64,000 nucleotides of DNA from a virus (taxonomy: Duplodnaviria; Caudoviricetes): the IMG/VR virus record IMGVR_UViG_2507262055_000001; one strand, 5' to 3'. A program made the position numbers and the translations under genes. Within the stretch, counting starts at the first letter, position 1. Every line of letters starts with the position of its first letter. The notes below the pieces were generated by a model that worked only from the letters and a program-made list of their open reading frames with translations, did no database searches and was not told where the DNA came from. This document shows positions 28,513-54,277 of the stretch, in pieces.

Positions 28513-29165
28513 CCGTGGCTGCCTCACGCGAATTCGAATACTGGTCGCCCGAGCCCCTGTTCAAGGGCGAGACGATCTTCTGCCTGGCGTCGGGCCCGGG
28601 CCTGACCGCGGAGATATGCCAGCGGATCCGCGGGCGCCGGGCCATTGCCATCAATTCGAGCGCCGTGCTTGCGCCCTGGGCCAGCGTGCTGTTCTTCACC
28701 GATTCCGGCTGGTACGAGCCGCGGCGCGAGCTGGTGGCGAACTGGGCCGGCCTGGTGGTGTCGATGTCGCGGACTGCGAAGCGCGAGCTTCCCGACAAGG
28801 TCAAGCGGGTGCAGGGGGAGGGCGACCCCCAGGCGCTGCCGGGCTTCAGCCGCGGCCCTCACGTCATCCAGCAGGGCCGATCGAGCGGTCATACCGCGGT
28901 GAGCCTGGCGATCGCGCTGGGCGCTTCGCGAGTGGTGTTGCTCGGCTATGACATGCGCTTCGTCGGCGGCCGCGAGCACTGCCACGACGAGTACAAGGGG
29001 GCGGCTCGCGATGTCGAAATCTACAGCCGCGAGTTCGTACCGGGCTTTGCCGGCTGGGATGAGGCCGCGCGCGCAGTCGGCGTCGAGGTCGTCAACGCGA
29101 CCGAGGGCAGCGCGGTGAAGGAATTTCGGTTTGCCAAGCTCGAGGAGATCTTGAATGCCCCGTAG
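28509..29165 (+). CDS. Maf/DUF115/CstII-like glycosyltransferase-fold protein
   Basis: TIFCLASGPGL, AIAINSS, LFFTD, SSGHTAVSLAIALGASRVVLLGYDM. Confidence 0.65.
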   Translation: MTVAASREFEYWSPEPLFKGETIFCLASGPGLTAEICQRIRGRRAIAINSSAVLAPWASVLFFTDSGWYEPRRELVANWAGLVVSMSRTAKRELPDKVKRVQGEGDPQALPGFSRGPHVIQQGRSSGHTAVSLAIALGASRVVLLGYDMRFVGGREHCHDEYKGAARDVEIYSREFVPGFAGWDEAARAVGVEVVNATEGSAVKEFRFAKLEEILNAP

Positions 29166-29532
29166 TCTCGCTCTTCTCGCTTCCGCGGCTTGCATTGCGC
29201 TCCTGTCGACTGAAGCGTTCGCCGCCAAATGCTATGTGAGGGAATACGCGGCCGTCGGCGCCGTGACGCGCCAGGGCGGCGTCGCCTTGCAGGCTGCGGC
29301 CGAGCCGCCGATCGTCGATCAGGCCGCCGTCGACTTCACCAGCGGCCACGCGGAGTCGGCGGCCTTCAATTCCGAAACCCGCTACATCCGCGTGTGGTGC
29401 GATGCTCAGGCTTCGTACCAGACAGGGGCAGCTCCGGTCGCGACCAACGCGATGTCGCCCCTCACGGCGGCGTTTCCGGAGTATTTCGGCGTGACGCCGG
29501 GCCACAAGATCTCCGTCGTCGCCAATCCCTGA
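29155..29532 (+). CDS. Secreted small beta protein (Sec signal), virion-accessory type
   Basis: MPRSLALLASAACIALLSTEAFA|AK; two Cys in the mature part. Confidence 0.7.
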   Translation: MPRSLALLASAACIALLSTEAFAAKCYVREYAAVGAVTRQGGVALQAAAEPPIVDQAAVDFTSGHAESAAFNSETRYIRVWCDAQASYQTGAAPVATNAMSPLTAAFPEYFGVTPGHKISVVANP

Positions 29533-29541
29533 CGCCATCCG

Positions 29542-29790
29542 ATGAACTTGAAGCAATTACTCGCCGCCACGATCGGCGTCGCGCTGCTCCTGGGCGCGCT
29601 CAAGGCGCCCGAGGTCTATGCGTTCGGCATGGGCCGCGAAGGCGCGAGCTTTGGCAGGATGGGTGCGATCGTGAAGAAGCAGAGCGGCGGAGCTGGCGCG
29701 AACACCGGCAGCATCCTGCTGGTCGATGGATCGTCGTTCCTGCTGCAGGTCGACGGGACGAGCCGTGTCTGCCTAGCTGGAGGCTGCTGA
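29542..29790 (+). CDS. Secreted small protein (Sec signal) with LLVDG/LLQVDG motif
   Basis: MNLKQLLAATIGVALLLGALKAPEVYA|FG; C-terminal CLAGGC. Confidence 0.65.
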   Translation: MNLKQLLAATIGVALLLGALKAPEVYAFGMGREGASFGRMGAIVKKQSGGAGANTGSILLVDGSSFLLQVDGTSRVCLAGGC

Positions 29791-29793: not shown

Positions 29794-31611
29794 ATGAGAT
29801 TATCCTGGAAATCGCTTGCGGTCGCAACCGCGCTGATCGGGCTGTCGCCAGCGGCTCATGCCGCGAATAGTGCCGTGCCGGCTATGACCGCCGCGACTTC
29901 CGTGGTCGGGACGGATCTGCTCTACTGCATCCAGTCGAGCGGCACCCTAGATCGAAAGTGCACGCCAGCCCAGATGGCCGCGTACATCTACGGCCTGACC
30001 AGCGGCGACGCGACGATCAACGGCACGGGCGCGGTGACGTTCGCCACGGTGAACGCCAACGTCGGTGCGTTCGGGTCTGCCACGCAATGCGTCGCTCACA
30101 CGGTGAACGCCAAGGGCCTGATCACGGCCACTTCGGCGGTGACCTGCACGCCTGCAATTGGCAGCCTGACCGGCACGGGTACTGGCGTTATCACTGCCCT
30201 GGGTGTCAACGTGGGCACCGCAGGCTCTGTCGTCGTCAACGGCGGCGCGCTCGGCACGCCGTCCTCCGGCACTGCCACGAACCTGACGGGCACCGCCGCT
30301 GGCCTCACGGCCGGCAACGTCACGACCAACGCAAACCTGACCGGCGCTGTGACATCGAGCGGCAACGCTACCTCGCTCGGATCGTTCACTAGCGCGCAAC
30401 TCCTTGCCGCCCTGACGACCAAAACCGGCAGTGGTAGCGCTGTGTTCGGTACCGCGCCGACGATTGACAGCCTGAACGCCACGACCGCCATGACGCTGGC
30501 ATGGATCACGGGCTCGACGCAGTGTTTGCAGGTCAACACGTCCGGCGTTGTGAGCGGCACCGGCTCGGGTTGCGGCGGCTCCGGCTCGACCGGCGCGAAC
30601 CCGACCGCTACCGCCGGCCCTACGGCCAACAACGGCGTCGCCACCACATTCATGCGGTCGGATGCTAGCCCTGCTGTGCAGCAGGGCAGCGCCTCGCAAA
30701 AGGGCATCGTTCAGGTTGACGGCACGACACTCCTGGCTTCGTCCGGCGTCATCAGCGCCGCGCCAACGACGGTCGCAACCAGCGTCCAGACTGGTGCGAA
30801 TTATCCGTTCTTGACGGGCGACCAAGCGAAGCTTGTCTACCTCAACAACGCCAGCAATCAGGTGCCGACAATTCCGCAGGCCGGCACCACTGGCTTTGCT
30901 GCAAGCTGGTTTGTTCAAGTCTGCAACATCGGCGCAGGCACTCAGACAATCACACCGACCATCTCAACCATAGGGGGCGCAGCCAGCTATCTGTTGCCGG
31001 CGGCATCCGCGGCTGATCCTGCTTGCGTCGCCGTCGTGTCTGATGGCAGCAACTACGTGATAGCTCCTGACTTCACAAAGGATGCCTCCAGGTTTTCTGC
31101 GGGTGTGTTGGCCGCCGCGCGAGGCGGTGCCGGTACTATTACTGGCGCTCTGAAGGCGAACGGTTCGGGCGTTGTCTCCCAGGCAGCCTGCGCCGATCTG
31201 TCGAATGCACAGACCGGCTGCTCCACTGCGACCGGCACGTCTGGCGGGACGCTGCCGCTGCTCAATGGCGCGAACACTTGGTCCGCTACGCAAACCTTCG
31301 GGCCGGTGGTCGGTACCGTCACTACGCAATCGGGCACCACCTACACCTTCGCATCGAGCGATTGCGGCACAACGGTTCGCTTCTCCAATGCAGGCGCAGT
31401 GACTGCGACGATTCCTCAAGGCTTGCCTGTGGGTTGCAACATCGCCGTCATGCAGGCCGCAGCCGGTCAGGTGTCTGTCAACGGCTCTGCGGTAACCCCT
31501 GCCACGTTGCAGAGCGCGCACAGCTACACCAAGACATTCGGGGCAGGCGCAATCATCGGCCTCTTCAATGACGCCACCAATCATGTGGTGTTGACGGGGG
31601 ATGGCGCATGA
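29794..31611 (+). CDS. Secreted Thr/Gly/Ala/Ser-rich fibre-like protein
   Basis: Signal MRLSWKSLAVATALIGLSPAAHA|AN; GTPSSGT repeat; two C-terminal Y.F...D.G/K-type beta modules; 12 Cys. Confidence 0.75.
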   Translation: MRLSWKSLAVATALIGLSPAAHAANSAVPAMTAATSVVGTDLLYCIQSSGTLDRKCTPAQMAAYIYGLTSGDATINGTGAVTFATVNANVGAFGSATQCVAHTVNAKGLITATSAVTCTPAIGSLTGTGTGVITALGVNVGTAGSVVVNGGALGTPSSGTATNLTGTAAGLTAGNVTTNANLTGAVTSSGNATSLGSFTSAQLLAALTTKTGSGSAVFGTAPTIDSLNATTAMTLAWITGSTQCLQVNTSGVVSGTGSGCGGSGSTGANPTATAGPTANNGVATTFMRSDASPAVQQGSASQKGIVQVDGTTLLASSGVISAAPTTVATSVQTGANYPFLTGDQAKLVYLNNASNQVPTIPQAGTTGFAASWFVQVCNIGAGTQTITPTISTIGGAASYLLPAASAADPACVAVVSDGSNYVIAPDFTKDASRFSAGVLAAARGGAGTITGALKANGSGVVSQAACADLSNAQTGCSTATGTSGGTLPLLNGANTWSATQTFGPVVGTVTTQSGTTYTFASSDCGTTVRFSNAGAVTATIPQGLPVGCNIAVMQAAAGQVSVNGSAVTPATLQSAHSYTKTFGAGAIIGLFNDATNHVVLTGDGA

Positions 31612-32501
31612 TCCGAGCAATTCTAGCGTGGCTCATGCTGTGTTCGGGGGCTGCCGCGCAAGTTGGGCAGATGCCGAACATTGCTCAGTTGCAGCCTGCA
31701 TCGGCCGCATATGCCGGGCCGGGCGATGTCGTCGCGAGCGCCTCCGGGTGGTGGGGCTTTCGAGCCTACAGCGCCGCCAAAAAGGGCACCAAGGCGATAA
31801 ACGTCTGCAACGTGAGTGACGTTGCTTGCGCCGACATGAACACGGACGCCATAACTGGCGCGCTCGTCATCACCCTTGTGGGCGGGTCAGATTGCAGTTC
31901 TGTCACGTGCACGATCAAGACCGTTTATGACCAGAGCGGCGGCACGAATTGCAGCGCTGCGGCTTGCGATCTGACCAATTCGACGATCGCCAATCGGCCC
32001 ACGCTGCAAACAAACTGCGCCAACGGTCAGCCTTGCGCTGTGTGCAATGGCGCGTCCTCGCAAAAGCTAGCGAACACATCGGCGCCGACGCTCGCGCAGC
32101 CTATCAGTGGTGCCTATGTTGGTGCTCGGACGGGCACGTTTACGACGGGAGGCGGCTTGCTCTCTTCCGCCTCGACAGGTTTAATCGCTGGCTTCGCGCC
32201 AAGCACAAATACATTCCGGATCTTCAACGGAACGTCTCTACCGGCGACGGCGTCAGACTCTACTGTCCATTCGTTTCAGACGGTTTCAAATAACACGTCG
32301 AGCGTCGTAGTTGTCGATGGATCGGCAACTAGCGGTACGTCCAGCACTGGCGGCATCGCTACAAATCTGGATATCTGCAATTCAAATGGAAGTTTTCTGA
32401 CCGGCCAATGGATGGAGGCCGGCTTCTGGACTGTTGCGTTCACCAGCACGCAATACGGAAACTTGCGGCTAAACCAGAAGGGATTTTGGAATACGCCATG
32501 A
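31608..32501 (+). CDS. Secreted ConA/LamG-like (arabinofuranosidase-B-like) beta-sandwich protein
   Basis: Signal MIRAILAWLMLCSGAAA|Q; GWWGFRAYS; TVYDQSG; 10 mature Cys. Confidence 0.6.
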   Translation: MIRAILAWLMLCSGAAAQVGQMPNIAQLQPASAAYAGPGDVVASASGWWGFRAYSAAKKGTKAINVCNVSDVACADMNTDAITGALVITLVGGSDCSSVTCTIKTVYDQSGGTNCSAAACDLTNSTIANRPTLQTNCANGQPCAVCNGASSQKLANTSAPTLAQPISGAYVGARTGTFTTGGGLLSSASTGLIAGFAPSTNTFRIFNGTSLPATASDSTVHSFQTVSNNTSSVVVVDGSATSGTSSTGGIATNLDICNSNGSFLTGQWMEAGFWTVAFTSTQYGNLRLNQKGFWNTP

Positions 32502-35500
32502 AGAAAGTAGTAGCTGTACTTTTTAGCGCTGTGCTTGTCGTGCTGCTGCTGTCGCCCGCGCTTGCGTTTATACGCGGCCAGCAGTCAGGGTTCAGCGGTG
32601 GCCGCACGCAGATTGGGCTCAATGGCATCGGCTTCACCGGCGAGGGGATGTACCTGAACATCCTTAAAATATCCGGCAATTGGAACTGGGCAGACAACGC
32701 GAGCGGTGGCCCCGGCCCCGACATGCTGGACTCGAACGGTTATCCGATTTTCAAATCGACGTACCTGGGGAATAGTTGCGGGTCTGGTGGCATCTGCCAC
32801 GGCGGCATCAAGACCGTCACGGAGGTGCCCCCGTGTGCGACGCGTTCATGCTCCTATGTGCCGATCTCTACAGGGACGTGCACCTGGTCGGTCTCAGGTT
32901 CCGGCAGCATGTCGGTGAGCGGTGTTAACACGGTTGGGGCGACCTTCACTGCAACACCAACATTCCTAAGCAATCTGAACGCGTCGCAGGTTACGTTCCA
33001 GATTACGGCGACCGACGCCACCACGCCATGCACGAGCCTGGCCGTCGTCCATGTCGATGACGTGGTAGGAGCCGATTTCACCAACTATACGACCAAGGCC
33101 GGCACTGCGGTCGGCAAGTTCGGCTCGAAATTTTTGTCGCGGTTAGTCCAGGCAAAATTTGCCGTGATCCGTTTCATGAACTCGCAGAACACAAATGCGT
33201 CGAACGTGACCAGATGGGAAGATCGGACCCCGCAGAACTACGTTTTTTACAACGCCTACACGTACAATGCCGCCTATTACACAGGGGCCTCGACCAACAG
33301 CGGCACTTTGGGGAACGACTTTGCGGTCTCGCTTGGAAGCGGAGGCCCGGTCGATAAGCAGCCCTTGCACGTTCTCATAGGGCCCGATGGCAAGGCGACT
33401 TCTACGGGATCGACGATCTCCGGCAGCGTTCTGACCGTGGCTGGCTACACTGGCGGGACGTATGCCGTAGGCCAGCGTCTATCAGGGACTGGCGTTGACG
33501 CAAATCTTTATATTGCTTCCCTCGGAACGGGCACCGGCCAAAATGGCACGTACAACCTCTCGCAATCCGCCAGCACGGTTGCCGTGGGGCAGAGCATCAC
33601 AGGTTGGTACGGAACGAGAGTGGTCGGAACGACGGCTGCAAGCTGCTCTTTGTCGTGGCCTGCACATGGCGTAAGCGTAAACGACCCGATAGGGTTTTAT
33701 TCCAGCGGCACCATTGCCGACAGCCTGCCCTTTTATTCCGGTGGCAATTATTACGTCGTGAGCGTGCCTGACGCTGACCACGTTACCGTATCGAACACGG
33801 TTGGAGGTACGTGTCTCCAGGCCGCTGTAACCAGACCTTCATCCACAATCGCGATCAGACAACCGACGCTGAGCCTCAACGGCTCGACCCCGATCACCAT
33901 TAAGAATATGTACAGCAATACGCTGACAGGGCCGAACGCAATCTCGGGCGCGAACACGGAAAATCCGGAGAGTGGTCGAATCGGAACCTTTGTCTACGAT
34001 GACGATCTGAAGTCTTATTTGATGTTCGGCGGGACACAGGGTGACGGGCTTTTCAACCAAGGCATCATCAACGGCATTCCGATCGAAGACTGTCTGCTGC
34101 TCGCCACATACGTGGGCGCTCATCCATGGTTTGTGCAGCCGTTTTTGACGTCGAACGCATCTGCGGGGGCGGCGTATCCGAACTGGATCAATGGCCTCGC
34201 TACGTACCTGAAGGCCAATATGCCGGCTTGGATGATTCCGCGCATCGAGCCCGTCGTTAATGAGGACTGGAACTCGCTTTTCTATGGCACCAGCTACTCC
34301 AACAACAAAGCCAGTGTCTACTGGGGAACGCCAACGTCTCCTAACCTGAACGATTACAATAACTATTATGGATACGCCGCGTCTTTGAGTGGGCAGGCAG
34401 TCAATGCTGTTTTCGGTGGCTCAGTGCCTAGGGACGGCAAGAGATACCAAGTCCCGATTGGCGTGCAGCAGACTAGCAGCCCGTCATCGAATGACGCGCG
34501 CCTTGCGTCTACCAAGTTTCTAAGCTCCGGCCCAACGCCGCCAGCAGGGTTTGTTCAAGAGGCCGCCTACAAGTGGGTTACGCATGAGGCCCCCGCGAAT
34601 TACTACGGTCTTAGCCTCGGTGCCGCTGCTCTTGTCCAGACGGCTTACCTATACAGCACGGGCGACGCCACCCAACTCACGTCCTATGTGGCCAGCACCG
34701 GGTTGAGCAACCCGCCTAACGGCGGATCGATCCCGGTCAAAGTTGCTTCTTTCCTTGACCATTATCAGTGGGGGCAGGGCACCGGAGCCTACACAGGCAA
34801 GCCATGGGCACTTGACGGAATCGCTATTCGACAGACCGCTTATGAAGGCGGCTGGTCTCCCCCTTATGTGCAAAACACCGTGCCTGGCACGCTGGATTTC
34901 ACAACCAGTTCGGCCAGCGTCAATTCATCCTCCCCGGTCACATCGGTCAGCAAAGCGGCAGCAGCCGTGCTCGCGATGCCGACGACAACGACTCCTTTCG
35001 GCACGGTCCCAAATACCGGCAACGGCGCCGTGGTGGGAATGCCCATCCGCATCGTCAATGCGGCCGGCGGCGACTTCACCAAGCTGAACAGTTCGCGCCA
35101 GACCGTCACATTCACAAACAGCTCGTGCGATATTTCGCTGACGGCGAACGGGTACGTTGCCAACGAGGCGGCTGTGTTCAACACCAGCGGTTCGCTGGGA
35201 GCGTCGCTGACTGCTGGAGCGGCCTATTTCATCGTTAACCCGACGACCAATGCTTTCCAAGTGTCGCTCACAAAGGGGGGCTCGTGCATCTCGATCAACA
35301 CAGCGGGAATATCTGGAAGCAATCAGGTGACGCCCGGCTGGTTTGTCAATGGCGTTGGCGGCGCGCTCGGTGCGAACAATATCAGCCTTGATGTCGATAC
35401 CAGCGCGTACACCGGGACTTACGCTGCCAGCAGCGCGTCGGCGGTCTACATCAACGATGGCAACAACAATTCGATGATAATGTTGGCGTCGCTGTCAGCC

Positions 35501-35695
35501 AGCAACGCCGGCTCATTCTTGGCGGGGAATGGCTCTGCATTCTACGATCAGCTTATTGCCAACGGATGCGAATTTCCGTCTCAGTTCGATATGGCGGGCA
35601 ACAACGCCACGTTACCGTGGTCCCCGCTTTATCCGAACGTCTACGTGACACCCGACCCGTCCTATTGGACTGCGATCTCAGCCTACAATCACTGA
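32498..35695 (+). CDS. Large secreted clan GH-A-like glycoside hydrolase with inserted phage beta-domains
   Basis: Signal MKKVVAVLFSAVLVVLLLSPALA|F; IRFMN..NTN.S..TRWEDR; GIPIE...L..VGAHPWF; VNEDWN; TAYEGG. Confidence 0.65.
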   Translation: MKKVVAVLFSAVLVVLLLSPALAFIRGQQSGFSGGRTQIGLNGIGFTGEGMYLNILKISGNWNWADNASGGPGPDMLDSNGYPIFKSTYLGNSCGSGGICHGGIKTVTEVPPCATRSCSYVPISTGTCTWSVSGSGSMSVSGVNTVGATFTATPTFLSNLNASQVTFQITATDATTPCTSLAVVHVDDVVGADFTNYTTKAGTAVGKFGSKFLSRLVQAKFAVIRFMNSQNTNASNVTRWEDRTPQNYVFYNAYTYNAAYYTGASTNSGTLGNDFAVSLGSGGPVDKQPLHVLIGPDGKATSTGSTISGSVLTVAGYTGGTYAVGQRLSGTGVDANLYIASLGTGTGQNGTYNLSQSASTVAVGQSITGWYGTRVVGTTAASCSLSWPAHGVSVNDPIGFYSSGTIADSLPFYSGGNYYVVSVPDADHVTVSNTVGGTCLQAAVTRPSSTIAIRQPTLSLNGSTPITIKNMYSNTLTGPNAISGANTENPESGRIGTFVYDDDLKSYLMFGGTQGDGLFNQGIINGIPIEDCLLLATYVGAHPWFVQPFLTSNASAGAAYPNWINGLATYLKANMPAWMIPRIEPVVNEDWNSLFYGTSYSNNKASVYWGTPTSPNLNDYNNYYGYAASLSGQAVNAVFGGSVPRDGKRYQVPIGVQQTSSPSSNDARLASTKFLSSGPTPPAGFVQEAAYKWVTHEAPANYYGLSLGAAALVQTAYLYSTGDATQLTSYVASTGLSNPPNGGSIPVKVASFLDHYQWGQGTGAYTGKPWALDGIAIRQTAYEGGWSPPYVQNTVPGTLDFTTSSASVNSSSPVTSVSKAAAAVLAMPTTTTPFGTVPNTGNGAVVGMPIRIVNAAGGDFTKLNSSRQTVTFTNSSCDISLTANGYVANEAAVFNTSGSLGASLTAGAAYFIVNPTTNAFQVSLTKGGSCISINTAGISGSNQVTPGWFVNGVGGALGANNISLDVDTSAYTGTYAASSASAVYINDGNNNSMIMLASLSASNAGSFLAGNGSAFYDQLIANGCEFPSQFDMAGNNATLPWSPLYPNVYVTPDPSYWTAISAYNH

Positions 35696-35710
35696 GTCCG
35701 GAGATAGTTC

Positions 35711-35932
35711 TCACCCAAAGGTTCGGGCGATGAACTTTGCGATCCTGACGGTCGGGCGGCTTTTCACGTCGATACGGTTTGCGAAGACACCAATCCCGAG
35801 CGGGATGTCGCCTTCAAGCTCAAACAAACCTTCTTTGGTAACGGAGAATTCGAGCTTCTTGCCGTCGACCTCGAAACTGTAGATCCCAGCACGTGTGAAA
35901 TAGCTGTCGCGTAGTCGCCATTGTGATTTCAT
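35711..35932 (-). CDS. Small hypothetical moron protein (73 aa)
   Basis: ATG at 35932 preceded by an AAGGGA RBS; avoids overlap with the upstream PEP-CTERM gene. Confidence 0.45.
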   Translation of the reverse strand: MKSQWRLRDSYFTRAGIYSFEVDGKKLEFSVTKEGLFELEGDIPLGIGVFANRIDVKSRPTVRIAKFIARTFG

Positions 35933-35946
35933 GCAACCCAATTCCC

Positions 35947-36660
35947 TTAAGAGAAGTTCTCCGCGCGCCTGTTCCTCGCGACTGAAATACCAATTGTCGA
36001 GAAGCCTAGGATCAGCATCACCCAAGTTGTCGGCTCAGGGACGCTTGTGATCGGCGCGGATAGTCCATCGACCACAATATCAACAGAGGAGATCGAAAGG
36101 GCGTAACCCACTGTCCCACCCCCTTCACCACGCGTGCCATACCAGTAGGTGAGCCCGCCTGATCCAACGAAGTCTTTGATGCTGACCGGTGTGAGGATAT
36201 CGCTCGGAAGCAAAGGGTTATCACCAGTTATCCAGAGATGAACGGCTTGGCCGTAAGCCCCTTCTAGGCTGTTGATGTACCCCAGAGCTGTGAAGATATG
36301 ACCATTGTTGATCGTCAAGGTGGCGTCGGACCAGAAAAATTCGTCGAACATGCCGGTGGCGAAGCCAGGTGCTCGTTCCGGCTGGGAGTTGCAGGAGCAA
36401 CCTGGATCGGTAGTATAGAACGCGGTGGGACTGACAATAGCTCTGGCATCATTGGTATCGAAGACGAAGCCAAAGACGCCCCGTCCTGAACCTAAAGCGC
36501 CTTCTCCAAATCCGCCGGGAGCCGTTTGGCCCGTCCTAGGGTCGTAGTTACCAGACCAAGAGGCAGCATAAGTGCCAGTGTAGTTCACTTGGATAATGGC
36601 CGCTTGGGCGCTGAAGTTGACGCTGACAAACGCGGCGACCAGCAATAAGAACTTGAGCAT
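35947..36660 (-). CDS. PEP-CTERM surface protein
   Basis: Signal peptide ...SAQA|; C-terminal VPEPTTWVMLILGF + TM + RNRR. Confidence 0.85.
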   Translation of the reverse strand: MLKFLLLVAAFVSVNFSAQAAIIQVNYTGTYAASWSGNYDPRTGQTAPGGFGEGALGSGRGVFGFVFDTNDARAIVSPTAFYTTDPGCSCNSQPERAPGFATGMFDEFFWSDATLTINNGHIFTALGYINSLEGAYGQAVHLWITGDNPLLPSDILTPVSIKDFVGSGGLTYWYGTRGEGGGTVGYALSISSVDIVVDGLSAPITSVPEPTTWVMLILGFSTIGISVARNRRAENFS

Positions 36661-36800
36661 ACTATGACACTCCTAAAGGGCAGGCATTCCACCGTTCGCG
36701 CGGGGATTGAGTCAATCGCGGAAGCCAAAAAAACTCTGTTTGACTTCCTTATGTTCGCTAGGCGTTCTCCGGCCCGCCTAGCCCAGAAAGAAAGTTATAG

Positions 36801-37337
36801 TCAAAATTCGGGGACTCTTAAGGTTGGGCCACACAGAAGCCCCATCAGCATAATAAGTATCTGTACTGTCATCAGAAAGAGGTCTCTATTATTCGTTGGG
36901 GCACTAACCGGAGGCCCCCCGGCCAAAAACGCTTCAAAGGGTGTTGCCCCTCCATGGAGGACACCATCAATTTCGAGGCGAGCGATAGATTTGAGCGATC
37001 GCATGTGGTCAGAAATAGGGGGCTTATCGAAAGTCAGGGGTTCCGGACGGTGTGCAAACTCGTTCCGGATATCCCTAATGCGATCGAGGTCCCATCTTAC
37101 ATCGGCACTATAGAGCTGCAACAGATAGCCAAGAGTTATGTTGCGGGCGAAGGCCGTATCAACGAACACGCGGGCTGCTTTTTCATCCGATGATAGTACT
37201 CGCTTAAGCGCATGCTTCAACCCGTCTTCAATGAACGAGCCGGCCATGATGGCTAGCGCTCGATCGGAGTGCTTTCCGTTTTCAAGGTCTTCGATGATCT
37301 CGCGATCACGATCATCTCTAATGAACCATTGCGGCAT
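36801..37337 (-). CDS. MtlR-like/HEPN-fold protein
   Basis: DRALAIMAGSFIE..L; IRDIRNEFAH (Rx4H). Confidence 0.65.
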   Translation of the reverse strand: MPQWFIRDDRDREIIEDLENGKHSDRALAIMAGSFIEDGLKHALKRVLSSDEKAARVFVDTAFARNITLGYLLQLYSADVRWDLDRIRDIRNEFAHRPEPLTFDKPPISDHMRSLKSIARLEIDGVLHGGATPFEAFLAGGPPVSAPTNNRDLFLMTVQILIMLMGLLCGPTLRVPEF

Positions 37338-37755: not shown

Positions 37756-37761
37756 GCATGA

Positions 37762-37792: not shown

Positions 37793-37812
37793 GTACTCTT
37801 CTATGATGGCGA

Positions 37813-46523: not shown

Positions 46524-46924
46524 GCAAGGCGTTCGAGCCCTATGTCGGCATTCCCTATCTCGAGCGCGGCCGGAGCATCTCCGGCTGCGATTGCTACGGC
46601 CTGGTGCGACTGGTGCTGGCCGAGCTGCGGGGCGCCGAGCTGCCGTCCTTTGTCGAGGCCTACGTCTCAGCAACCGACCGCGCCGCGCTGGCGCGGTTGA
46701 TCGCAGGCGAGATCGCGCCATGGCAGCCCGTTGCGTTCGGCGAGGAGCGGCCCTTCGACGGCGTGCTGATGCGGGCAGGGCGGCTGTTGTCCCATATCGG
46801 CCTGGTGGTCGAGCCGGGGCGGCTGCTGCACGTCAGCGAGGGCGAAGAGTCCAGGATCGAGCGCTATCGTGCACCGCCGCTCAGCCATCGCGTCGTCGGG
46901 TTCTACAGGTGGCAGGCCGTATGA
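46520..46924 (+). CDS. NlpC/P60 tail tip protein (TipK-like, no JAB domain)
   Basis: YVGIPY..GR...GCDCYGLVRLV; HIGLVV; LLHV. Confidence 0.85.
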   Translation: MSKAFEPYVGIPYLERGRSISGCDCYGLVRLVLAELRGAELPSFVEAYVSATDRAALARLIAGEIAPWQPVAFGEERPFDGVLMRAGRLLSHIGLVVEPGRLLHVSEGEESRIERYRAPPLSHRVVGFYRWQAV

Positions 46925-49900
46925 TGCTTCCGGTTCGGCAGCTGCACCAGGGCGAGATCCTGTCGCCGGCGGCGACCGTGCGCGTCATCGGGCGGACCCA
47001 TCCGCTCGCCGGCGAGCGCGTGGTGCGCGACGTCGCGGCCGGGCTGTCGATTGCCGAGATCCTCGCGCTTTGCGCCGGTGAGAGCTATGCCGGCGGCTTT
47101 ATCGTTCATATCAACGGGCACGCGGTCCCGCCGGAGCATTTTCGAAAGGTGCGGGTCAAGGCGGGCGCGACCGTTACGTTCATGCCGCGGCTGCAGGGCG
47201 GCGGCAACGTCTGGCGCACCGTCCTGTCGGCGGTCATCGCGGTCACGGCGCTGGTGGTTGCGCCTTATTTGGCGCCCTTCCTTGTCCCGTTGGGGCTGTC
47301 GCTCGGTGTTGCCACCGCTCTTGTCGCCGGTGGCATCATGCTGGCCGGCACGCTGGCGCTCAACGCGCTGTTTCCGGTGCGGCCGCCGCAGCTCGGCGAC
47401 AACACCGCTTCGGCCTCGCTCAATTCGATCCAGGGCGCGCAGAACCAGGCTGCGCCGTTCGGCGCGGTGCCGGTGGTGCTGGGCCGTCACCGCCAGTCGC
47501 CGTTCTATGCCGCCAAGCCCTACACCGAGATTGTCGGCGAGGATCAATATCTCCGGCTGCTGTTCTGTCCCGGCTATGGCCCGCTCGCGATCGACGACTT
47601 GCAGATCGGCGAGACGCTGCTGTCGTCCTATTCCAATTACGATATCGAGGTGCGCCAGGGCCTTGTCTCGGATGCGGCGGTGACGCTCTATCCCGGTACC
47701 GTCGACGAGGTCGCGCTGTCGATCACGCTGGCCAATGGCAATGATCCTGCCGGCTCGGATACCGGCACCGGCGGCCCATGGCAGAGCCTGACCACGCCGC
47801 CCGACACCGACGAGATCTCGCTCGATTTCGTCGCGCCGCAGGGCTGCTACCAGGTCAACAGCAACAGCGGCAATGCCGACGAATATCGCGTCACCATCAA
47901 GTGCCAGTATCGGCCGGTGGGGACGGTCAGCTGGTTCAACATGTCGGACGCCGTCTTCAATCGCTCGACCAGCCCGATCAGGCGCGGCGTGCGCGAGGTG
48001 GTTGCGCGCGGACAGTACGAGGTGCGCGCCAAGAAACAGACCGGCGATGGCCGTGACGACAAGATCAAGGACGAGGTGGCGTGGACCGCGATCCGCTCGC
48101 TCAAGAACGCGGCGCCGATCGGCTTTGCCAAGCCGCTGGCCTTGATCGCCCTGCGGATCCGCGCCAGCGATCAGCTGTCCGGCGTCATCAGCACCCTGAA
48201 CTGTATCACCACCTCGCTGGTCAAGGCCTATTCCGGCGCTGGCAATGTGTGGAGCGACGACACCGCCTCGCAATGGCCGCCGGATCTGTTCCGGCATGTG
48301 CTGCAGGGCCCGGCCAATGCGCGGCCGGTTGCCGATGCCGGCATTGATCTCGGCAATCTGCAGGAATGGTGGGTCTACTGCGTCGCCAACGGTTTCAAAT
48401 TCAACCAGGTGCTGACATCGGCAGGCTCGGTCTATGACAAGCTTGCCGACATCGCCGCAGCTGGCCGCGCCGTTCCGACTTTCATCAACGGCAAATGGGG
48501 CGTGATCTGGGACCGGCCGGATGATGCCATCGTGCAGCACTTCACCCCGCGTAACTCCTGGGGTTTCCAGCTGCAGCACCCCTATGCCCAGCAGCCGCAC
48601 GGCTGGCGAGTCAGCTTCATCAACGAGGACAACGGCTTCACGCAGGACGAGCGCATCGTCTACGACGACGGCTACGATGCCACCAATGCGACCCTGTTTG
48701 AGGGGTTACAGTTTCCCGGTGTCACCGATCCTGACGGCATCTGGAAGCACGGCCGGTTTCATATCGCGCAGTCCCGGCTGCGGCCGGAGAAGATCTCGCT
48801 CAATGTCGGCTGGGAGCATCTTGTCTGCACCCGCGGCGATCGCGTCCGGGTCACTCACGACGTGCTGCTGATCGGGCTCGCTGCGGCCCGGGTCAAGGCA
48901 GTTCCGGGTCAGACCATAATGGTGGATGGAATTGAGGTGACGCTCGGCGCGCAGGAGATCGTGATCGATGAGACCGTCACGATTGAGGCCGGCAAGACCT
49001 ACGGCATGACCTTCCGCGTCCCCGACGACGTTCGCACCATCACCCGCGCCGTCGATGCGGTGATGACGGCTGGCGACTATACCGCGCTGACGCTGGTCGG
49101 GGACCTCTCCGGCATTGCCGACGGCGTCCTGGTCGCCTTCGGCGAGACCGACCGCGCCAGTGCCAATTATCGCGTCCAGGGGATCGCGCACCAGAAAGAC
49201 CTGATCGCAACCCTGACCCTGGTCGACGATGCCCCGGAAATATCGCAGGCCGATCAGGGCGAGATCCCGGCCTACAATCCGAACGTCACAATCCCGGCCG
49301 ATCCGTTCTCGCTGCCTCCGCGCGACCTGCAGTATCTCGAGGTGATCGACGGCTATGGTGCTTCGGTCCGCGCCCTTGTGCACCTGTCCTGGCAACTGCC
49401 GCGCTTCGGCAATGTCGCATCCTTCGAGGTGCAGCAGCAGGATAACGATGGCGGCGCGGCCTGGGTGACGGTTGCGTCCGTGCTGCCGCCGAACATGTCG
49501 GCGGACGTACCGATTATCGCGGCTGGTGCATGGAGCTTTCGGGTTCGCTGCGTCTTCACCAACGGCACGGTGTCGGCGTGGACGGCGCTCAACGGGCTGG
49601 CTCTGCTCGGACTGTCGTCTGTTCCGGGCGACATCGTCAACCTGCACCAGCACAGCGTCGATGGCCAGACCGTGCTGGATTGGGACGATGTCACCGATCA
49701 CCGCCTGGTCTATTACGAGGTCCGCAAAGGCACTTCGTGGGACACCGGCCTGGTCGTCGGCGATGTCGTCACCCAGCCGCCATGGCCCACCACGGGCGAC
49801 GGCACCTATCACGTCAGGGCCTATGTGCTGTCGCCGTTCGGCGTGCGGATCTACAGCGCTTCCACAGCCTCGATCGCGATCGCCGATTCCATCATCTCGC

Positions 49901-50754
49901 GCAACATCATCGTCTCCAACGATGAGCAGGCTGCGGGATGGCCGGGTGGGCTCGATGGCGGCGTCATCGCCGGCAGCTTCATCCGCACCGACGTCGGCGC
50001 GGCGATCTCGATGCCTTGGGCGCAGGAGATCGTCGACCAGCTCAGCCTCGATGGCCTGCACATCGCGGTCTATCTCTCTTCGGTGATCGTGGACATCGGT
50101 CGCGCCGCCGAGTGCCGGTTCTGGACCGAGTACGAGGCCTCCGGTGTGCTGCAAGGCGAGGATTTTCTGGCGCAGCCGGACGTCCTTGGATCGGGCGATA
50201 TTCTCGGGACCTCGCCAACACGCTTCATCCAGGCGTTCCCGATCTGGCGGTTTGCATCCTCGGGCACCAACGACGTCTTTACGCCGACGGACGTGTTTGC
50301 GCCGACCGACGTGTTCACGGCGGATGTTGTTTGGGGGGATTTCGTTGCGATCGCGTCGGGCACGCGGGTCGGTCGGTACTTTCGCGCGGGCTTGGTGCTG
50401 ATCACCAACGACGCAACCACGGACGCGACCGGCACGAAGTTCAGTTGGTTCGTCGACGTGCCCGATCGCAATGACGACTACACCGAGCTCGCCGTGCCGA
50501 ACACCGGGCTCGAGGTCACCTTCTATAGCGGCGGCTATGACGCCACGCCCGCGGGCGGGGCCACGCCGGTGCCGTTCAATGGTGGCCCGAACGGGTCAAC
50601 CGTGCCGCACGTGCAGCGCGCCATCATCAACGGCAGCAACGGCGACGAGGTCAAGGTCACCAACCTCACGCTGGCGGGCTGCACCGTCCATGTCGTCAAC
50701 GCCGGCTCCAACGTGACGCGCAGCGGCGTCAATCTTCTGGTTCGCGGCTTTTAG
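46921..50754 (+). CDS. Central tail fibre/host-specificity protein (TipJ-like) with fused N-terminal TipI/ubiquitin-like domain
   Basis: RLQGGG; VPVVLGRHR; LIALRIRASDQLSG; GDRVRVTHD; FN3-like repeats. Confidence 0.85.
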   Translation: MMLPVRQLHQGEILSPAATVRVIGRTHPLAGERVVRDVAAGLSIAEILALCAGESYAGGFIVHINGHAVPPEHFRKVRVKAGATVTFMPRLQGGGNVWRTVLSAVIAVTALVVAPYLAPFLVPLGLSLGVATALVAGGIMLAGTLALNALFPVRPPQLGDNTASASLNSIQGAQNQAAPFGAVPVVLGRHRQSPFYAAKPYTEIVGEDQYLRLLFCPGYGPLAIDDLQIGETLLSSYSNYDIEVRQGLVSDAAVTLYPGTVDEVALSITLANGNDPAGSDTGTGGPWQSLTTPPDTDEISLDFVAPQGCYQVNSNSGNADEYRVTIKCQYRPVGTVSWFNMSDAVFNRSTSPIRRGVREVVARGQYEVRAKKQTGDGRDDKIKDEVAWTAIRSLKNAAPIGFAKPLALIALRIRASDQLSGVISTLNCITTSLVKAYSGAGNVWSDDTASQWPPDLFRHVLQGPANARPVADAGIDLGNLQEWWVYCVANGFKFNQVLTSAGSVYDKLADIAAAGRAVPTFINGKWGVIWDRPDDAIVQHFTPRNSWGFQLQHPYAQQPHGWRVSFINEDNGFTQDERIVYDDGYDATNATLFEGLQFPGVTDPDGIWKHGRFHIAQSRLRPEKISLNVGWEHLVCTRGDRVRVTHDVLLIGLAAARVKAVPGQTIMVDGIEVTLGAQEIVIDETVTIEAGKTYGMTFRVPDDVRTITRAVDAVMTAGDYTALTLVGDLSGIADGVLVAFGETDRASANYRVQGIAHQKDLIATLTLVDDAPEISQADQGEIPAYNPNVTIPADPFSLPPRDLQYLEVIDGYGASVRALVHLSWQLPRFGNVASFEVQQQDNDGGAAWVTVASVLPPNMSADVPIIAAGAWSFRVRCVFTNGTVSAWTALNGLALLGLSSVPGDIVNLHQHSVDGQTVLDWDDVTDHRLVYYEVRKGTSWDTGLVVGDVVTQPPWPTTGDGTYHVRAYVLSPFGVRIYSASTASIAIADSIISRNIIVSNDEQAAGWPGGLDGGVIAGSFIRTDVGAAISMPWAQEIVDQLSLDGLHIAVYLSSVIVDIGRAAECRFWTEYEASGVLQGEDFLAQPDVLGSGDILGTSPTRFIQAFPIWRFASSGTNDVFTPTDVFAPTDVFTADVVWGDFVAIASGTRVGRYFRAGLVLITNDATTDATGTKFSWFVDVPDRNDDYTELAVPNTGLEVTFYSGGYDATPAGGATPVPFNGGPNGSTVPHVQRAIINGSNGDEVKVTNLTLAGCTVHVVNAGSNVTRSGVNLLVRGF

Positions 50755-50766: not shown

Positions 50767-52212
50767 ATGAAGCGTCAACTTCACCTGATCGCCATCGCGG
50801 CGATCGCGGGATCGATCGCGGCCGGCGCCGTGCAGTCGCTGATCTCGGCCTGGGCCGTGCAGAACGAGTTGGTGCCGCCGACGTCCGGCATCTACACCGG
50901 CGTGCAGTACTCGCAAAAGATCGGCGATGCTTTTCGATCGCTCGCGAGCTGCAACAAAGGCGCAACCGCGCCGGCCAATGTTGGCGGCGCGACGGTCGAC
51001 GGCCTTTGTTGGATCGACGATTCCCTGACGCCGTGGAGCGTCAAGCAATATGTCAACGGCGGCTGGGCCGTCACCGGCTACCTCGATCCCTCCAACAGCA
51101 GTTTTTCGGGCGTCGTCGGCGGCGGGCTTGGTTCGATCGCCTCGGCCTCGACCACGGATCTCGGCTCGGTGCCGCAAGCCAGCGTGACCATCACGGGCAC
51201 CGCGACGATCTCCGCGTTCGGTTCGGCCGCGCCAGATGGTACGATCAAGTTCATTCGGTTTGCTGGCGCGTTGAAGCTTGCCAATTCTGCCGCGCTTGCG
51301 GTCCCTGGCGGCTATGACCTGGTCACGGCGGCCGGCGACCGCGCGATCGTCACACATCTCGGCAGCGGCAGCTGGGAAATTACGCAATACACCCGTGCCA
51401 ATGGCATTCCGGTCGACGTCGCGTCGGTCGGAAAGATCGAGTACGGCAATTTCGAAAGCATCCCGCCGAATAGCGTTTCCGGCTACGGCCAGGCGCTGTC
51501 CAGGGCGAGCTATCCGGTTTACCTGGCAAAGGTGACGCGGGCGCAGAACGGCACCCGTACCTCCGGCAATGCGACGATCACGGGCATCGCCAACACGGAA
51601 GGGTTCGGCCCCGGCATGCCGGTCGAGGGCACCGGCATCAATGCCGGCTGCATCATCGCGAGCTTCGTTCAGAACACCTCGATCACTCTCAACTCGTCCT
51701 CTTGCGTTACTGCGTCGGGGACATCGGCCGTTACTGTGTTTCTGACGGGCTACGGCGTTTCGGGGAACTCCACCACGGTCGGTGTCAAGGATTGCCGCGG
51801 CCGAGCCCTTGCGGGGCGTGATCTCTTCAGAAACGGCGCTTGGGCAAACCGGCTGACCCCGTCCTATTTTGGTGTGGACTCATCGATATCTGGCATCGCC
51901 AATGGTTCGGAATTTCAGACGCTGACCCTCGGCCAGCTCCCGACTGGGATTACCGTCGCCGGGACCATTCACGTCACCTCGGATCAGGGCAACATCCCGT
52001 CGAGCACAACCCAATCGGGTGCGGTCGATGCCACCAGTGGCACTCGCTGGGGCATCATCGGGCCGGCCTCAGGCACCACGCCTGCGACGATCGGCGACAT
52101 CACGTCGACCGGTACGGCGCAAACCATGACGTCGACGAACACCAGCGGCAATTCGCATCCGATCGTACCTCCGACGCTGATCGCCGACTGCGTCGTTCGC
52201 GTGACGCCGTAA
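50767..52212 (+). CDS. Tail-fibre/collar-like protein with predicted Sec signal
   Basis: MKRQLHLIAIAAIAGSIAAGAVQSLISAWA|; collar-like KDCRGRALAG; C-terminal HPIVPPTL; 6 Cys. Confidence 0.7.
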   Translation: MKRQLHLIAIAAIAGSIAAGAVQSLISAWAVQNELVPPTSGIYTGVQYSQKIGDAFRSLASCNKGATAPANVGGATVDGLCWIDDSLTPWSVKQYVNGGWAVTGYLDPSNSSFSGVVGGGLGSIASASTTDLGSVPQASVTITGTATISAFGSAAPDGTIKFIRFAGALKLANSAALAVPGGYDLVTAAGDRAIVTHLGSGSWEITQYTRANGIPVDVASVGKIEYGNFESIPPNSVSGYGQALSRASYPVYLAKVTRAQNGTRTSGNATITGIANTEGFGPGMPVEGTGINAGCIIASFVQNTSITLNSSSCVTASGTSAVTVFLTGYGVSGNSTTVGVKDCRGRALAGRDLFRNGAWANRLTPSYFGVDSSISGIANGSEFQTLTLGQLPTGITVAGTIHVTSDQGNIPSSTTQSGAVDATSGTRWGIIGPASGTTPATIGDITSTGTAQTMTSTNTSGNSHPIVPPTLIADCVVRVTP

Positions 52213-52240
52213 AGCGCCCTCTGGAAAAGGAACACTTCGC

Positions 52241-54277
52241 ATGAAGCTGCAACGCCTTCTCGGCGCGGTCTGCGCTGCGCTGCTGCTTGTCGCGCCGCTG
52301 CGCGCGGCCGAGCAGTCGAGCTATGTCACGCCGACCGCCGGGCCGATGAGCATGGCCACGTTCACGGCGACCTATCTCAATCCGGCACTCCGGGCGCTGG
52401 CGGCATGCCACAACGGTTCATCGGCGCCGGCAAACGGGCCGAGCAGTGCGCCGATGGCCTATCAGGTCTGGTGCGACACCACGACCAACCCGGCGATCGT
52501 CAAGCGCTATGACGGCGCGTCCTGGGTGGCCATCGGTGCGCTCGATACCGTCTCCCACGCTTGGACGCCGTACCTCACCGGTGGCACCTCCGGCGGCCTG
52601 CCTTACTTCTCGAGCACGGGGGTGATGGCGTCCTCGGCCTTGCTGGCGCAGAACGGTTTTGTCGTCGGCGGTGGCGCTGGTGCGGCGCCGGCCTCGATCG
52701 CGGCGTGCACGGCCGACCAGATCGCGTTCGGCCGGACCGGAAGCGCGCCGCTGTGCCGCACGGTGACCGGTGACATCAGCTTTGCGACTGGCGTCAGCGC
52801 GGTCGGCGCCTCCAAGGTCACCTCGGCGATGCTCAATGCCGACGTATTCTCGACCGCGCATAGCTGGTCCGGCCAGCAGACTTTGGTGGCGCCGATCCTG
52901 GGCACGCCGGCCTCCGGGACGCTCACCAACGCCACGGGCCTGCCGATCGCGACGGGCGTCTCCGGGCTTGGCACCGGCGTCGCTGCGGCGCTCGCGGTCA
53001 ATACCGGCTCTGCCGGCGCGCCGGTGTTGTTCAATGGCGCGTTGGGAGCGCCATCGTCGGGCACGCTGACCAATGCGACGGGGCTGCCGGTGGCGAGCGG
53101 CGTCAGTGGGCTTGGGACCGGGGTTGCGACATTTCTGGCGACGCCGTCCAGCGCGAATCTGCGTGCGGCGTTGACCGACGAGGTCGGGACCGGGGCGGCG
53201 TATTTCATCGGCGGCGCGCTGGGCACGCCGGCCTCGGGCACAGCAACCAATCTGACTGGGCTTCCGATATCGAGCGGACTGACCGGAGCCGGGACGGGGG
53301 TTCTCACGGCGCTCGGCACCAACGTCGGCTCCGCCGGCTCGGTCATCGTGAATGGTGGTGCGCTGGGGACGCCGTCCTCGGGAACGCTAACCAGCGCGAC
53401 CGGCTTGCCGCTGTCGACCGGCGTCACCGGAACGCTGCCGCTCAGCAATGGCGGCACCGGCCAGACCACGGCAGCGGCGGCGCGCGCCTCGTCCGGCCTC
53501 AATGTCGAGAGCTTCACCGGCCACGGCGACTCCATCTACACGATCCTGGCGACCGATCGCACCGTTGGCACCAACGCGGCCTTTACGGCCTCGCGCACCT
53601 GGACTCTGCCGGCCGCCAGCGTCGTCAATCCCGGCCAGGACCTTGTTGTTGCCGACTTCCAGGGCACGGTGACGGGAACCAATACGCTGGTGATCCAGCG
53701 CGCCGGCTCTGACACCGTCAACGGCGGCAGTGCGGTCACGATCTCGGTTGCGAACGGCGCCTATCTCTTCAAGAGCGACGGCGTCTCGAAATGGACCGCG
53801 CAATCGATGGGCGCGGCCTCAGGCGGCGGCGTTTCCAGCGTGACGTGCTTTGGCGTGGCGATAACGAGCTCCGGCACCTGTGCGACGGCCGCAACGAAGT
53901 CGGATCAGCAGACCGGCACTTCGACGACGGCGATCGTCACGCCATCGCAGCAGCAAAGTCATGATAGTGCGCTGAAGGCCTCGGCCGTTATCACGCAGTC
54001 TGCCGGGACATACACCCTGGTCGCCGCTCCCGTCAGCTACGGCGTCGCGTCGATCTCAAAATCATCGACAGGCATCGTGGTGGTGACGCTGAGCACGGCG
54101 ATGGCGAGTGCTAACTACAAGGTGTTGTGCATGGCCACCCAGACCACGCCAGTCACCGTCCAGGAAGCGGGCGGAAACAGAACGACGACCACATTCGAGA
54201 TAAGAATCCAGAGCGTCGGGGCAACCCCCGCCGCAACCGACAGTGGATTTTCCTGCGACGTTTCCGGGCGTCAGTGA
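52241..54277 (+). CDS. Tail-fibre-like protein with Sec signal and four GTP(A/S)SGT repeats
   Basis: MKLQRLLGAVCAALLLVAPLRA|AE; LPLSNGGTG; N-terminal domain homologous to 50767; 8 mature Cys. Confidence 0.75.
   Translation: MKLQRLLGAVCAALLLVAPLRAAEQSSYVTPTAGPMSMATFTATYLNPALRALAACHNGSSAPANGPSSAPMAYQVWCDTTTNPAIVKRYDGASWVAIGALDTVSHAWTPYLTGGTSGGLPYFSSTGVMASSALLAQNGFVVGGGAGAAPASIAACTADQIAFGRTGSAPLCRTVTGDISFATGVSAVGASKVTSAMLNADVFSTAHSWSGQQTLVAPILGTPASGTLTNATGLPIATGVSGLGTGVAAALAVNTGSAGAPVLFNGALGAPSSGTLTNATGLPVASGVSGLGTGVATFLATPSSANLRAALTDEVGTGAAYFIGGALGTPASGTATNLTGLPISSGLTGAGTGVLTALGTNVGSAGSVIVNGGALGTPSSGTLTSATGLPLSTGVTGTLPLSNGGTGQTTAAAARASSGLNVESFTGHGDSIYTILATDRTVGTNAAFTASRTWTLPAASVVNPGQDLVVADFQGTVTGTNTLVIQRAGSDTVNGGSAVTISVANGAYLFKSDGVSKWTAQSMGAASGGGVSSVTCFGVAITSSGTCATAATKSDQQTGTSTTAIVTPSQQQSHDSALKASAVITQSAGTYTLVAAPVSYGVASISKSSTGIVVVTLSTAMASANYKVLCMATQTTPVTVQEAGGNRTTTTFEIRIQSVGATPAATDSGFSCDVSGRQ

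Follow-up and report, generated by a model that had tools for sequence, protein, structure and literature searches.

Export signals and disulfide-type cysteines on fiber-type and sugar-active proteins encoded in the late region of a Bradyrhizobium-type prophage

In textbook tailed phages every virion part is built in the reducing cytoplasm. The stretch of viral DNA analyzed here raises the question of whether some parts take another route. It comprises 64,000 bp (IMG/VR record IMGVR_UViG_2507262055_000001) and is referred to as the window. An earlier note on this DNA had reported seven genes in the structural operon that start with Sec-type signal peptides, and had proposed that their products are exported, oxidatively folded in the periplasm and docked on virions once the holin breaches the inner membrane. 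The window corresponds to G000:C1:4760120-4824119, part of a complete 8.05-Mb genome, and is a prophage of a Bradyrhizobium-type soil bacterium with a complete-looking siphophage late region on the + strand. Proteins related to the window products were from Bradyrhizobium strains, and the sole phage DNA match to the window was Bradyrhizobium phage ppBdUSDA122-1. The proteins in question are of known kinds, namely side fibers, gp10-like hubs and depolymerases. The new trait is the presence of export signals and disulfide-type cysteines on them.

All seven open reading frames (ORFs) were confirmed on the + strand (Table 1), and their signals were recognized by inspection and by a simple signal-peptide rule. 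At each N-terminus a basic n-region precedes a hydrophobic core without charges, and the cleavage site is of the small-x-small type. The predicted mature ends ANSAVP, AEQSSY and FIRGQQ were as given in the earlier note, and the RR motif of the twin-arginine translocation (Tat) pathway was present in none of the seven. The rule was run on 58 + strand ORFs of the window and flagged the seven. Beyond these it picked only two lysis-region products, the lipobox protein at 56349 and a Cys-rich one at 57467. The core virion proteins are signal-less, as had been claimed; the rule passed over terminase, portal, protease, capsid, connector, tube, tape measure and gpJ, and over the replication genes too. 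Full-length Cys counts in gene order were 3, 2, 12, 11, 12, 6 and 9. The mature counts reported earlier (2, 2, 12, 10, 12, 6 and 8) hold, as the products of 125, 297 and 678 amino acids (aa) each have one Cys inside the signal. The quoted motifs were also located: DCRGR at residue 342 of the 481-aa protein, LPLSNGGTG at residue 399 of the 678-aa protein, GTPSSGT at residue 154 of the 605-aa and residue 376 of the 678-aa protein, and Y.F...D at residues 337 and 517 of the 605-aa protein. The gene starts are either preceded by a Shine-Dalgarno-like sequence or overlap the stop of the gene before. The best start of the 1065-aa gene is ATG 32498, which overlaps the previous stop as ATGA; an upstream ATG at 32408 is likewise open. 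With the seven proteins as queries, Pfam and NCBIfam yielded no match, PHROGs gave three weak matches only, and PDB sequence searches returned nothing useful. It is the homologs, and not the window alone, that show the pattern to be more than chance.

Comparison of homologs, which the earlier note had put forward as a check, showed the signals to be conserved in kind but not in sequence over hundreds of proteins. For the 481-aa family, in which the earlier note had seen the least typical of the seven signals, 120 relatives were retrieved and the mature-start motif was located in 81. All 81 have a presequence of 20-36 aa with signal-peptide character, with Ala at position -3 in 72 and at position -1 in 77. 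Identity in this family is 34% in the signal compared to 64% in mature residues 30-90. The layout is kept while the sequence drifts, which is the mode of evolution of a cleavable signal. The 605-aa protein has more than 3599 homologs, and nearly all of the 120 listed keep a signal, after which the mature part opens with a conserved sequence of the A-[DN]-S-T-V-S-A-M-T-A-A type. Homologs of the 297-aa and 1065-aa proteins often carry canonical twin-arginine signals (for example RRRFLK, SRRKFIRG and DRRSFIHAG), and a Tat motif was found in about 36-38 of 152 members of the 1065-aa family. Such interchange of Sec and Tat signals is hard to explain unless export itself is the selected property. 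Because Tat carries folded proteins, oxidative folding cannot be the sole reason for export, and location is selected as well. On the strength of these alignments the view that the signals are genuine export signals is well supported, and the seven proteins very probably mature outside the cytoplasm.

The cysteines were compared in the same way, with each pair counted as both/one/neither residue present. For the 605-aa family the counts were 28/0/25 for residues 45/56, 28/1/24 for 99/118, 45/0/8 for 377/411 and 19/1/33 for 466/476, and the mature Cys number was even in 52 of 53 members. For the 481-aa family Cys62/Cys81 gave 54/0/62 and Cys295/Cys313 gave 115/0/1, while Cys343/Cys475 is invariant. 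In both families, then, cysteines are gained and lost in pairs. Cys content was also compared across 61 IMG/VR proteins that share the central domain of the 605-aa fiber. The median was 1.81% in the 29 with a signal or membrane anchor compared to 0.46% in the 32 without (Mann-Whitney p = 5e-10), a difference of about fourfold. The host genome encodes several DsbA-family proteins and DsbB. These patterns lend good support to the prediction that the cysteines form disulfide pairs that are oxidized in the periplasm.

The same data bear on the reading that the hydrophobic N-termini are not functional signals but wrong starts or buried helices, with the proteins folding in the cytoplasm as usual fibers do. 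The presequence of the 481-aa protein, which is long and moderately hydrophobic, would suit it, as would about 16 of the 120 homologs of the 605-aa protein that have a longer N-terminus, MFL..LVEMGGFELNHHWHG.., and then a hydrophobic stretch. Wrong starts are difficult to reconcile with the Shine-Dalgarno-like sequences and stop overlaps, and buried helices with an n-h-c layout and AxA site that are kept despite sequence drift. The switching between Sec and Tat, the covariation of Cys pairs and the raised Cys content of signal-bearing members also argue against it, as does a signal-less homolog in phage RHph_TM16 that starts at the mature boundary. This reading is given almost no weight.

The earlier note had treated the seven genes as one system. 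This part of the claim did not stand, as the genes fall into two units, a tail-tip pair after gpJ and a mobile five-gene cassette. In the first unit, the 481-aa protein has 61% identity to the product of the gene right after gpJ in ppBdUSDA122-1, where the signal and six Cys are retained. Its family was found directly after gpJ in the related loci L004, L091 and L092. The order gpJ, 481-aa family, second signal-bearing fiber and lysis genes was seen in Bradyrhizobium sp. ORS 278, in another Bradyrhizobium-type contig and in ppBdUSDA122-1. Judged from gene order, the tail module of every relative examined includes the tail-tip pair. Residues 44-256 of the 481-aa protein align to the tail-collar protein of the lytic Rhizobium phage RHph_TM16 (32% identity, E 5e-19). 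The gene for that protein also lies directly after gpJ, and its product is signal-less, is without the Cys62/Cys81 pair and begins exactly at the start of the 481-aa mature part. Two homologs, P0296 and P0360, carry Pfam Collar PF07484; the 481-aa protein of the window had no Pfam hit at E <=0.01, although the DCRGR motif is present.

The 678-aa protein has an N-terminal Cys-pair domain in common with the 481-aa protein (31% over 93 residues), likely a docking module, and fiber repeats in common with the 605-aa protein. Its N-terminal 198 residues have 75% identity to the annotated tail fiber of ppBdUSDA122-1, and it has a PHROG tail-fiber match (E 2e-4). Beyond ppBdUSDA122-1, tblastn against 50,697 phage records gave short repeat matches only. 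Counterparts in L004, L091 and L092 have a signal, the mature start AEQ(S/G)S and 14-18 Cys. No assembly chaperone gene lies between the tail-tip pair and the lysis genes. The gpJ protein, with 70% identity to the ppBdUSDA122-1 tail protein, is a candidate docking partner of the 481-aa and 678-aa proteins. Phage ppBdUSDA122-1 forms siphophage particles with a 63-nm head and a 125-nm tail by electron microscopy, and is spontaneously released by B. diazoefficiens USDA 122 at about two particles per cell (PMC10127595). No virion proteome of the present phage or of ppBdUSDA122-1 was found in the literature covered.

The second unit comprises genes A, B, F, 4 and 5. The start of gene A overlaps the stop of an upstream gene at 28509-29165, and homologs of gene A with a signal were found in L006, L022, L095 and L096 (36-44% identity). 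Homologs of gene B in L006, L007, L015 and L022 share the C-terminal motif C(R/L)AGGC. The product of gene F has a fiber-type N-terminal motif, GTPSSGT-type repeats, a gp10-like domain at about residues 325-430 and a C-terminal beta domain. Its AlphaFold2 (AF2) model is confident domain by domain only, as expected for a fiber modeled as a monomer, and reaches a predicted local distance difference test (pLDDT) score of >90 over residues ~325-430. In Foldseek this best domain matched the phage KP1 baseplate (E 2e-5), the Pa223 capsid spike and the tailspike of Acinetobacter phage Solidus. Further matches were to the T4 baseplate and to the docking domains at the N-terminus of CBA120 TSP4. The fiber repeats occur in signal-less phage fibers as well. 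The 297-aa product of gene 4 had an Atlas feature score of 0.99 and a template modeling (TM) score of 0.79 to clusters labeled 95-100% viral with PF09206 or Laminin_G_3. At the gene 4 position L007, L016 and L014 have Tat signals, and the L007 copy has Laminin_G_3. The seven proteins are parts of phage fiber, spike or depolymerase type, but two of them are of enzyme or lectin type and not fibers, namely a clan GH-A glycosidase and a ConA/LamG-like protein.

Genes A, B and the fiber gene are conserved in L006, L007, L015 and L022 and are followed there by variable exported lectin-like and glycanase-like genes. The cassette has no fixed place: in this prophage and in L007, L015 and L016 it comes after the capsid gene, in L005 and L006 after the lysis genes, and in L024 ahead of the protease-capsid gene. 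A signal-less fiber with only 2 Cys is encoded in the P22-like locus L093, where genes for two small proteins stand between the coat gene and the fiber gene. The second of these small proteins (L093:9652-9993) is signal-less and ends LL.EDG..LLE like protein B, with the similar stretch LLKEDGSYILQENGSRILLE. This 21-residue match, although thin evidence, suggests that the cassette may derive from an ordinary cytoplasmic appendage module beside the capsid gene. The likeness to L093 and the capsid-spike match make a head-fiber role possible. About 16 of the 120 homologs of the 605-aa protein (P0013, P0014, P0020-P0022, P0030, P0037, P0039 and others) have an extra conserved N-terminus, MFL..LVEMGGFELNHHWHGIDVL, plus a hydrophobic segment. 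It sits before the signal-like region, as also in L006:10001-10150, and may represent either a membrane anchor or a small gene of its own.

The AF2 model of the 1065-aa product of gene 5 had a pLDDT of 82.9 and a predicted TM score (pTM) of 0.85. No match to the PDB was found for this model by Foldseek at E <=0.001, and an Atlas feature search with the protein gave no usable match. The fold was resolved by VIA-align, with Z 24.1 and a root mean square deviation of 3.0 Å over 296 residues to the glycoside hydrolase family 51 (GH51) arabinofuranosidase 1pz2, and Z 17-21 to GH39, GH79, GH30 and GH5 chains, with values of 19-20 for GH39 and GH79. A word-based search for homologs gave three proteins only, and an exhaustive HMMER search was used instead. 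Across 61 homologs E589 never varies and N588 and Y782-E783-G784 hardly do, and the window protein has NEDW at 588 and YEGG at 782. By alignment it shows the clan GH-A pattern of an Asn-Glu acid/base plus a later Glu as predicted nucleophile. It also had a PHROG tail-fiber match (E 4e-5). The bacterial genome encodes a 752-aa paralog with 39% identity (G000:C1:2803033-2805177; L008:9929-12187). Its gene belongs to a cluster for polysaccharide synthesis, which also encodes a Wzx-type flippase, GT4 and GT2 transferases, a pyruvyl transferase and an acyltransferase. The setting of the paralog makes host exopolysaccharide the likely substrate, and the 1065-aa protein is probably an exopolysaccharide glycanase. 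Structural relatives in the Atlas have RTX, CBM or dockerin modules, which are typical of extracellular glycanases. A group of the glycanase family without Sec or Tat signals (P0149-P0151, P0155, P0163, P0170, P0173 and others) starts M-[TP]-V-G-L-L-S-F-A just before the catalytic domain. This start may be an adaptor peptide of virion-bound forms. The gene contexts of the signal-less P0150 and P0130 were uninformative.

The glycanase raises the main rival explanation, that the exported late proteins never join the particle and act instead on the envelope, exopolysaccharide or O-antigen of the producing cell. The glycanase, lectin and fiber proteins would bind and cut nascent polysaccharide while still in the periplasm or upon lysis. 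Progeny would be freed from the matrix, receptors on debris would be destroyed or masked in an exit, anti-readsorption or exclusion role, and free depolymerase would reach neighboring cells. The paralog in the polysaccharide cluster and the modules on the structural relatives both favor such a role. The cassette, being accessory and mobile, points the same way, as do the Tat signals on many homologs, which show that a location outside the cytoplasm is selected. The tail-tip pair is harder to fit. The 481-aa protein is a homolog in both position and sequence of a signal-less fiber that follows gpJ in a lytic phage, and it is kept after gpJ in every relative examined. The fibers retain N-terminal modules of the particle-anchoring type and a gp10-like docking domain, which would be superfluous for a free periplasmic factor. 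Export as far as the cell surface would call for an additional secretion step, and nothing for it is encoded nearby. This explanation is considered less likely than not.

Expression bears on a second rival, in which the seven are lysogenic-conversion genes (morons) that the prophage expresses without induction and whose products decorate or reshape the surface or matrix of the lysogen, as with lambda Lom and Bor, Legionella LdtA and the surface fiber proteins of Bdellovibrio. Within each unit the genes overlap or sit 3-28 nt apart. At the head of the units, gene A overlaps the late gene before it and the 481-aa gene starts 12 nt after gpJ. A consensus scan, which was crude and covered the sigma-70 consensus only, gave no + strand promoter-like or terminator-like site parting the seven genes from the capsid or gpJ genes. 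This arrangement is weak evidence for late co-transcription of the seven genes. Five of them lie in a 12-kb island (~26.3-38.6 kb) between capsid and connector, together with sugar-modifying genes and minus-strand cargo. The cargo (35947-38556) has promoter-like sites at 38612-38535 and a strong terminator at 37792-37769. In ppBdUSDA122-1, which is without the island, the capsid gene is followed by one small gene and then the connector gene. The G+C content is 0.55-0.57 over window 32000-38000 (the 1065-aa gene and the minus-strand cargo) compared to about 0.63-0.68 elsewhere, consistent with the distal part of the island having been gained more recently. The cassette of L006 is followed, in the same relative place as the minus-strand cargo here, by a gene with a weak PEP-CTERM hit (L006:15108-15743), and cassette and PEP-CTERM-type cargo may travel together.

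A moron role gains from the fact that the cassette adjoins clear minus-strand PEP-CTERM-type morons with their own promoter-like sites and strong terminator, and from the PEP-CTERM-type gene after the cassette in L006. The lower G+C over 32-38 kb and a patchy distribution (each of two queries matched 2 of 200 further genomes in the family) point the same way. The seven genes, however, are co-stranded and tightly spaced or overlapping with late genes, and the scan found no flanking + strand promoter-like or terminator-like sites, a weak argument given its sigma-70 consensus. The tail-tip pair is also constant in the tail module of all relatives, and the 297-aa family is labeled 95-100% viral in the Atlas. 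A moron role for the seven genes is held to be quite improbable.

The reading preferred here is that the seven products are Sec-exported, periplasm-oxidized, compartment-switched appendage modules that dock on virions after holin action. The proteins would build up in the periplasm during the late phase, with possible pre-assembly there on the gp10-like domain of the fiber, and would have no contact with the cytoplasm-built particles until the inner membrane is opened by the holin. An endolysin without an export signal leads to the expectation of a large-hole holin under established lysis biology. Between holin triggering and disruption of the outer membrane, cytoplasm and periplasm would be one compartment, and the proteins could join the outside of finished particles as last-adding parts. 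Last-adding fibers and decoration proteins can bind finished particles. Surplus protein would be freed as complexes that bind and cut exopolysaccharide. Docking after holin action is plausible on this analysis, and the proposal as a whole is judged to have about an even chance of being right.

Several points weigh against this proposal. Five of the seven genes are in an island that ppBdUSDA122-1 lacks and whose distal part has a low G+C content. As the island is accessory, the cassette could be non-structural cargo, and its position varies between phages. By tblastn the 605-aa and 1065-aa proteins were found in no isolated phage among the 50,697 records, which leaves the cassette without a cultured reference. 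In the 1065-aa family Cys parity was the same with and without a signal. The Tat homologs would allow cytoplasmic folding, and export for the sake of location fits an envelope-acting role at least as well. The interval between holin action and dispersal is short, which bears on docking efficiency. The wider proposal is that a widespread group of tailed phages of soil and rhizosphere routes its outermost, last-adding parts (side fibers, head or tail fibers with branching domains, attached depolymerases) through the periplasm in disulfide-bonded, pre-assembled form. Docking would be confined to the short interval in which the holin has opened the inner membrane and the outer membrane is still intact, giving Caudoviricetes a second assembly compartment. 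It is tentative and stands somewhat short of an even chance.

The remaining features of the late region are given in Table 1. A 1387-aa ORF from TTG 46591 (46591-50754) was rejected as an overcall; gpJ starts at ATG 46921, and an NlpC/P60 (gpK-type) gene lies in another frame from window 46502 to ~46921. The collagen-repeat gene lies between the portal and prohead protease genes, and its product has no signal peptide and zero Cys. Upstream of the cassette, window 27048-29165 encodes a hexapeptide acyltransferase, a 204-aa and a 112-aa protein, both without a Pfam hit, and an MptE/DUF115-like protein, overlapping into the first signal-peptide gene. These genes are absent from the cassette in other phages. 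Modification of the seven proteins by the upstream glycosylation genes was considered and set aside, as Sec substrates cross the membrane unfolded. Counterparts of the lysis region in L092 and ppBdUSDA122-1 are Amidase_2 or N-acetylmuramoyl-L-alanine amidase. The additional signal-peptide protein in the lysis region (window 57467-58141) has 8 Cys, and the lysis regions of relatives encode a signal-bearing RlpA/DPBB-type protein (L005:8935-9348; ppBdUSDA122-1).

Table 1. Coordinates of late-region features in the window.
Feature	Position	Strand	Basis
Large terminase	18668	+	
Portal	20809	+	
Collagen triple-helix repeat protein	22187-23254	+	PF01391, E 1.9e-47
ClpP-type protease	23251	+	
HK97-type capsid	24129	+	
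Gene A, 125-aa exported small protein, signal ..EAFA, mature AKCYV, 2 mature Cys	29155..29532	+	
Gene B, 82-aa exported Gly-rich peptide ending LL.DG..LL repeat and C.AGGC	29542..29790	+	
Gene F, 605-aa exported fiber, 12 Cys	29794..31611	+	phrog_21978; AF2 model
Gene 4, 297-aa exported ConA/LamG-like (GH54-catalytic-like) beta-sandwich protein, 10 mature Cys	31608..32501	+	
Gene 5, 1065-aa exported clan GH-A (beta/alpha)8 glycoside hydrolase, large beta inserts, 12 Cys	32498..35695	+	AF2, VIA-align
Head-tail connector	38705	+	
Tube	40204	+	
Tape measure	43100	+	
gpJ-type tail tip protein, 1277 aa, signal-less	46921..50754	+	PF24801 FNIII-A_GpJ and Lambda_tail_I
481-aa exported tail-collar-type fiber, 6 Cys, 12 nt after gpJ	50767..52212	+	signal, position, homologs
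678-aa exported fiber, 8 mature Cys	52241..54277	+	phrog_11355 tail fiber
Lysis region: predicted amidase-type endolysin without export signal, membrane proteins, lipobox protein at 56349	54551..56768	+	N-termini

The seven proteins were compared to known systems. Lambda-like side fibers (lambda Stf; RHph_TM16, MN988459, EVB27_007) are alike in their position after gpJ, and the collar-type DCRGR motif is present here. Those fibers are signal-less with few Cys and a downstream chaperone, whereas for the tail-tip proteins here the signal is of cleavable type, the paired Cys number 6-8 and a chaperone gene before the lysis genes is missing. The gp10-like branched tailspikes (CBA120 TSP4, PDB 7rfv and 7rej; T4 gp10) match the best domain of the 605-aa protein with a Foldseek probability of 1.00 (E 5e-5 to 6e-4). 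In those phages the domain joins fibers and spikes to each other, and their loci resemble the present one in having a fiber gene followed by genes for sugar-active partners. The CBA120 and T4 complexes assemble in the cytoplasm on the baseplate, whereas all putative components here have an export signal.

Signal-peptide proteins encoded among tail genes are known in lambda (Lom and Bor) and T5 (Llp), and the Lom gene is flanked by J and stf (PMC12309495). All three are membrane proteins or lipoproteins unrelated to fibers, and Lom and Bor are expressed in the lysogen. Unlike them, the proteins described here have fiber, spike and glycosidase folds and their genes show no sign of an own promoter. 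Exported phage-fiber-type folds are also found in surface proteins that descend from phage receptor-binding proteins, namely the lipoprotein LdtA of a Legionella diversity-generating retroelement, which has a Tat signal, and the fiber-like adhesins of Bdellovibrio. These are cellular genes outside virion operons, unlike the genes here, which lie inside the late operon of a complete-looking prophage. Rhizobial ExoK, ExsH, PlyA and PlyB act outside the cytoplasm to trim the exopolysaccharide of their own cell, and are GH16 enzymes with Sec signals or are carried by type I secretion with RTX repeats. The 1065-aa protein differs from them in its clan GH-A barrel and its Sec export, with Tat in relatives. 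XepA of the Bacillus subtilis element PBSX is alike in being a prophage late-region protein reported as exported; it differs in its Gram-positive host, its lysis-cassette gene and its pentameric dumbbell fold unrelated to fibers (PMC6834076). For signal-bearing tail fibers the literature covered, which included few subscription journals, gave only signal-arrest-release (SAR) endolysins, spanins and Lom, and the route proposed here is undescribed there.

Host-recognition and sugar-cutting parts thus carry export signals and disulfide-type cysteines in this prophage, and close signal-less relatives have neither. As ppBdUSDA122-1 carries orthologs of the tail-tip pair and has a culturable producing strain, the question of their destination is directly testable. 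If the proteins are on the particle, they would reveal an unrecognized extracytoplasmic step in phage assembly. This would bear on the prediction and annotation of fibers and on holin timing and spanin limits, and receptor-binding proteins and depolymerases of this kind would have to be expressed in periplasmic or oxidizing hosts. If they are not on the particle, they would form a new class of fiber-derived, envelope-acting late proteins.

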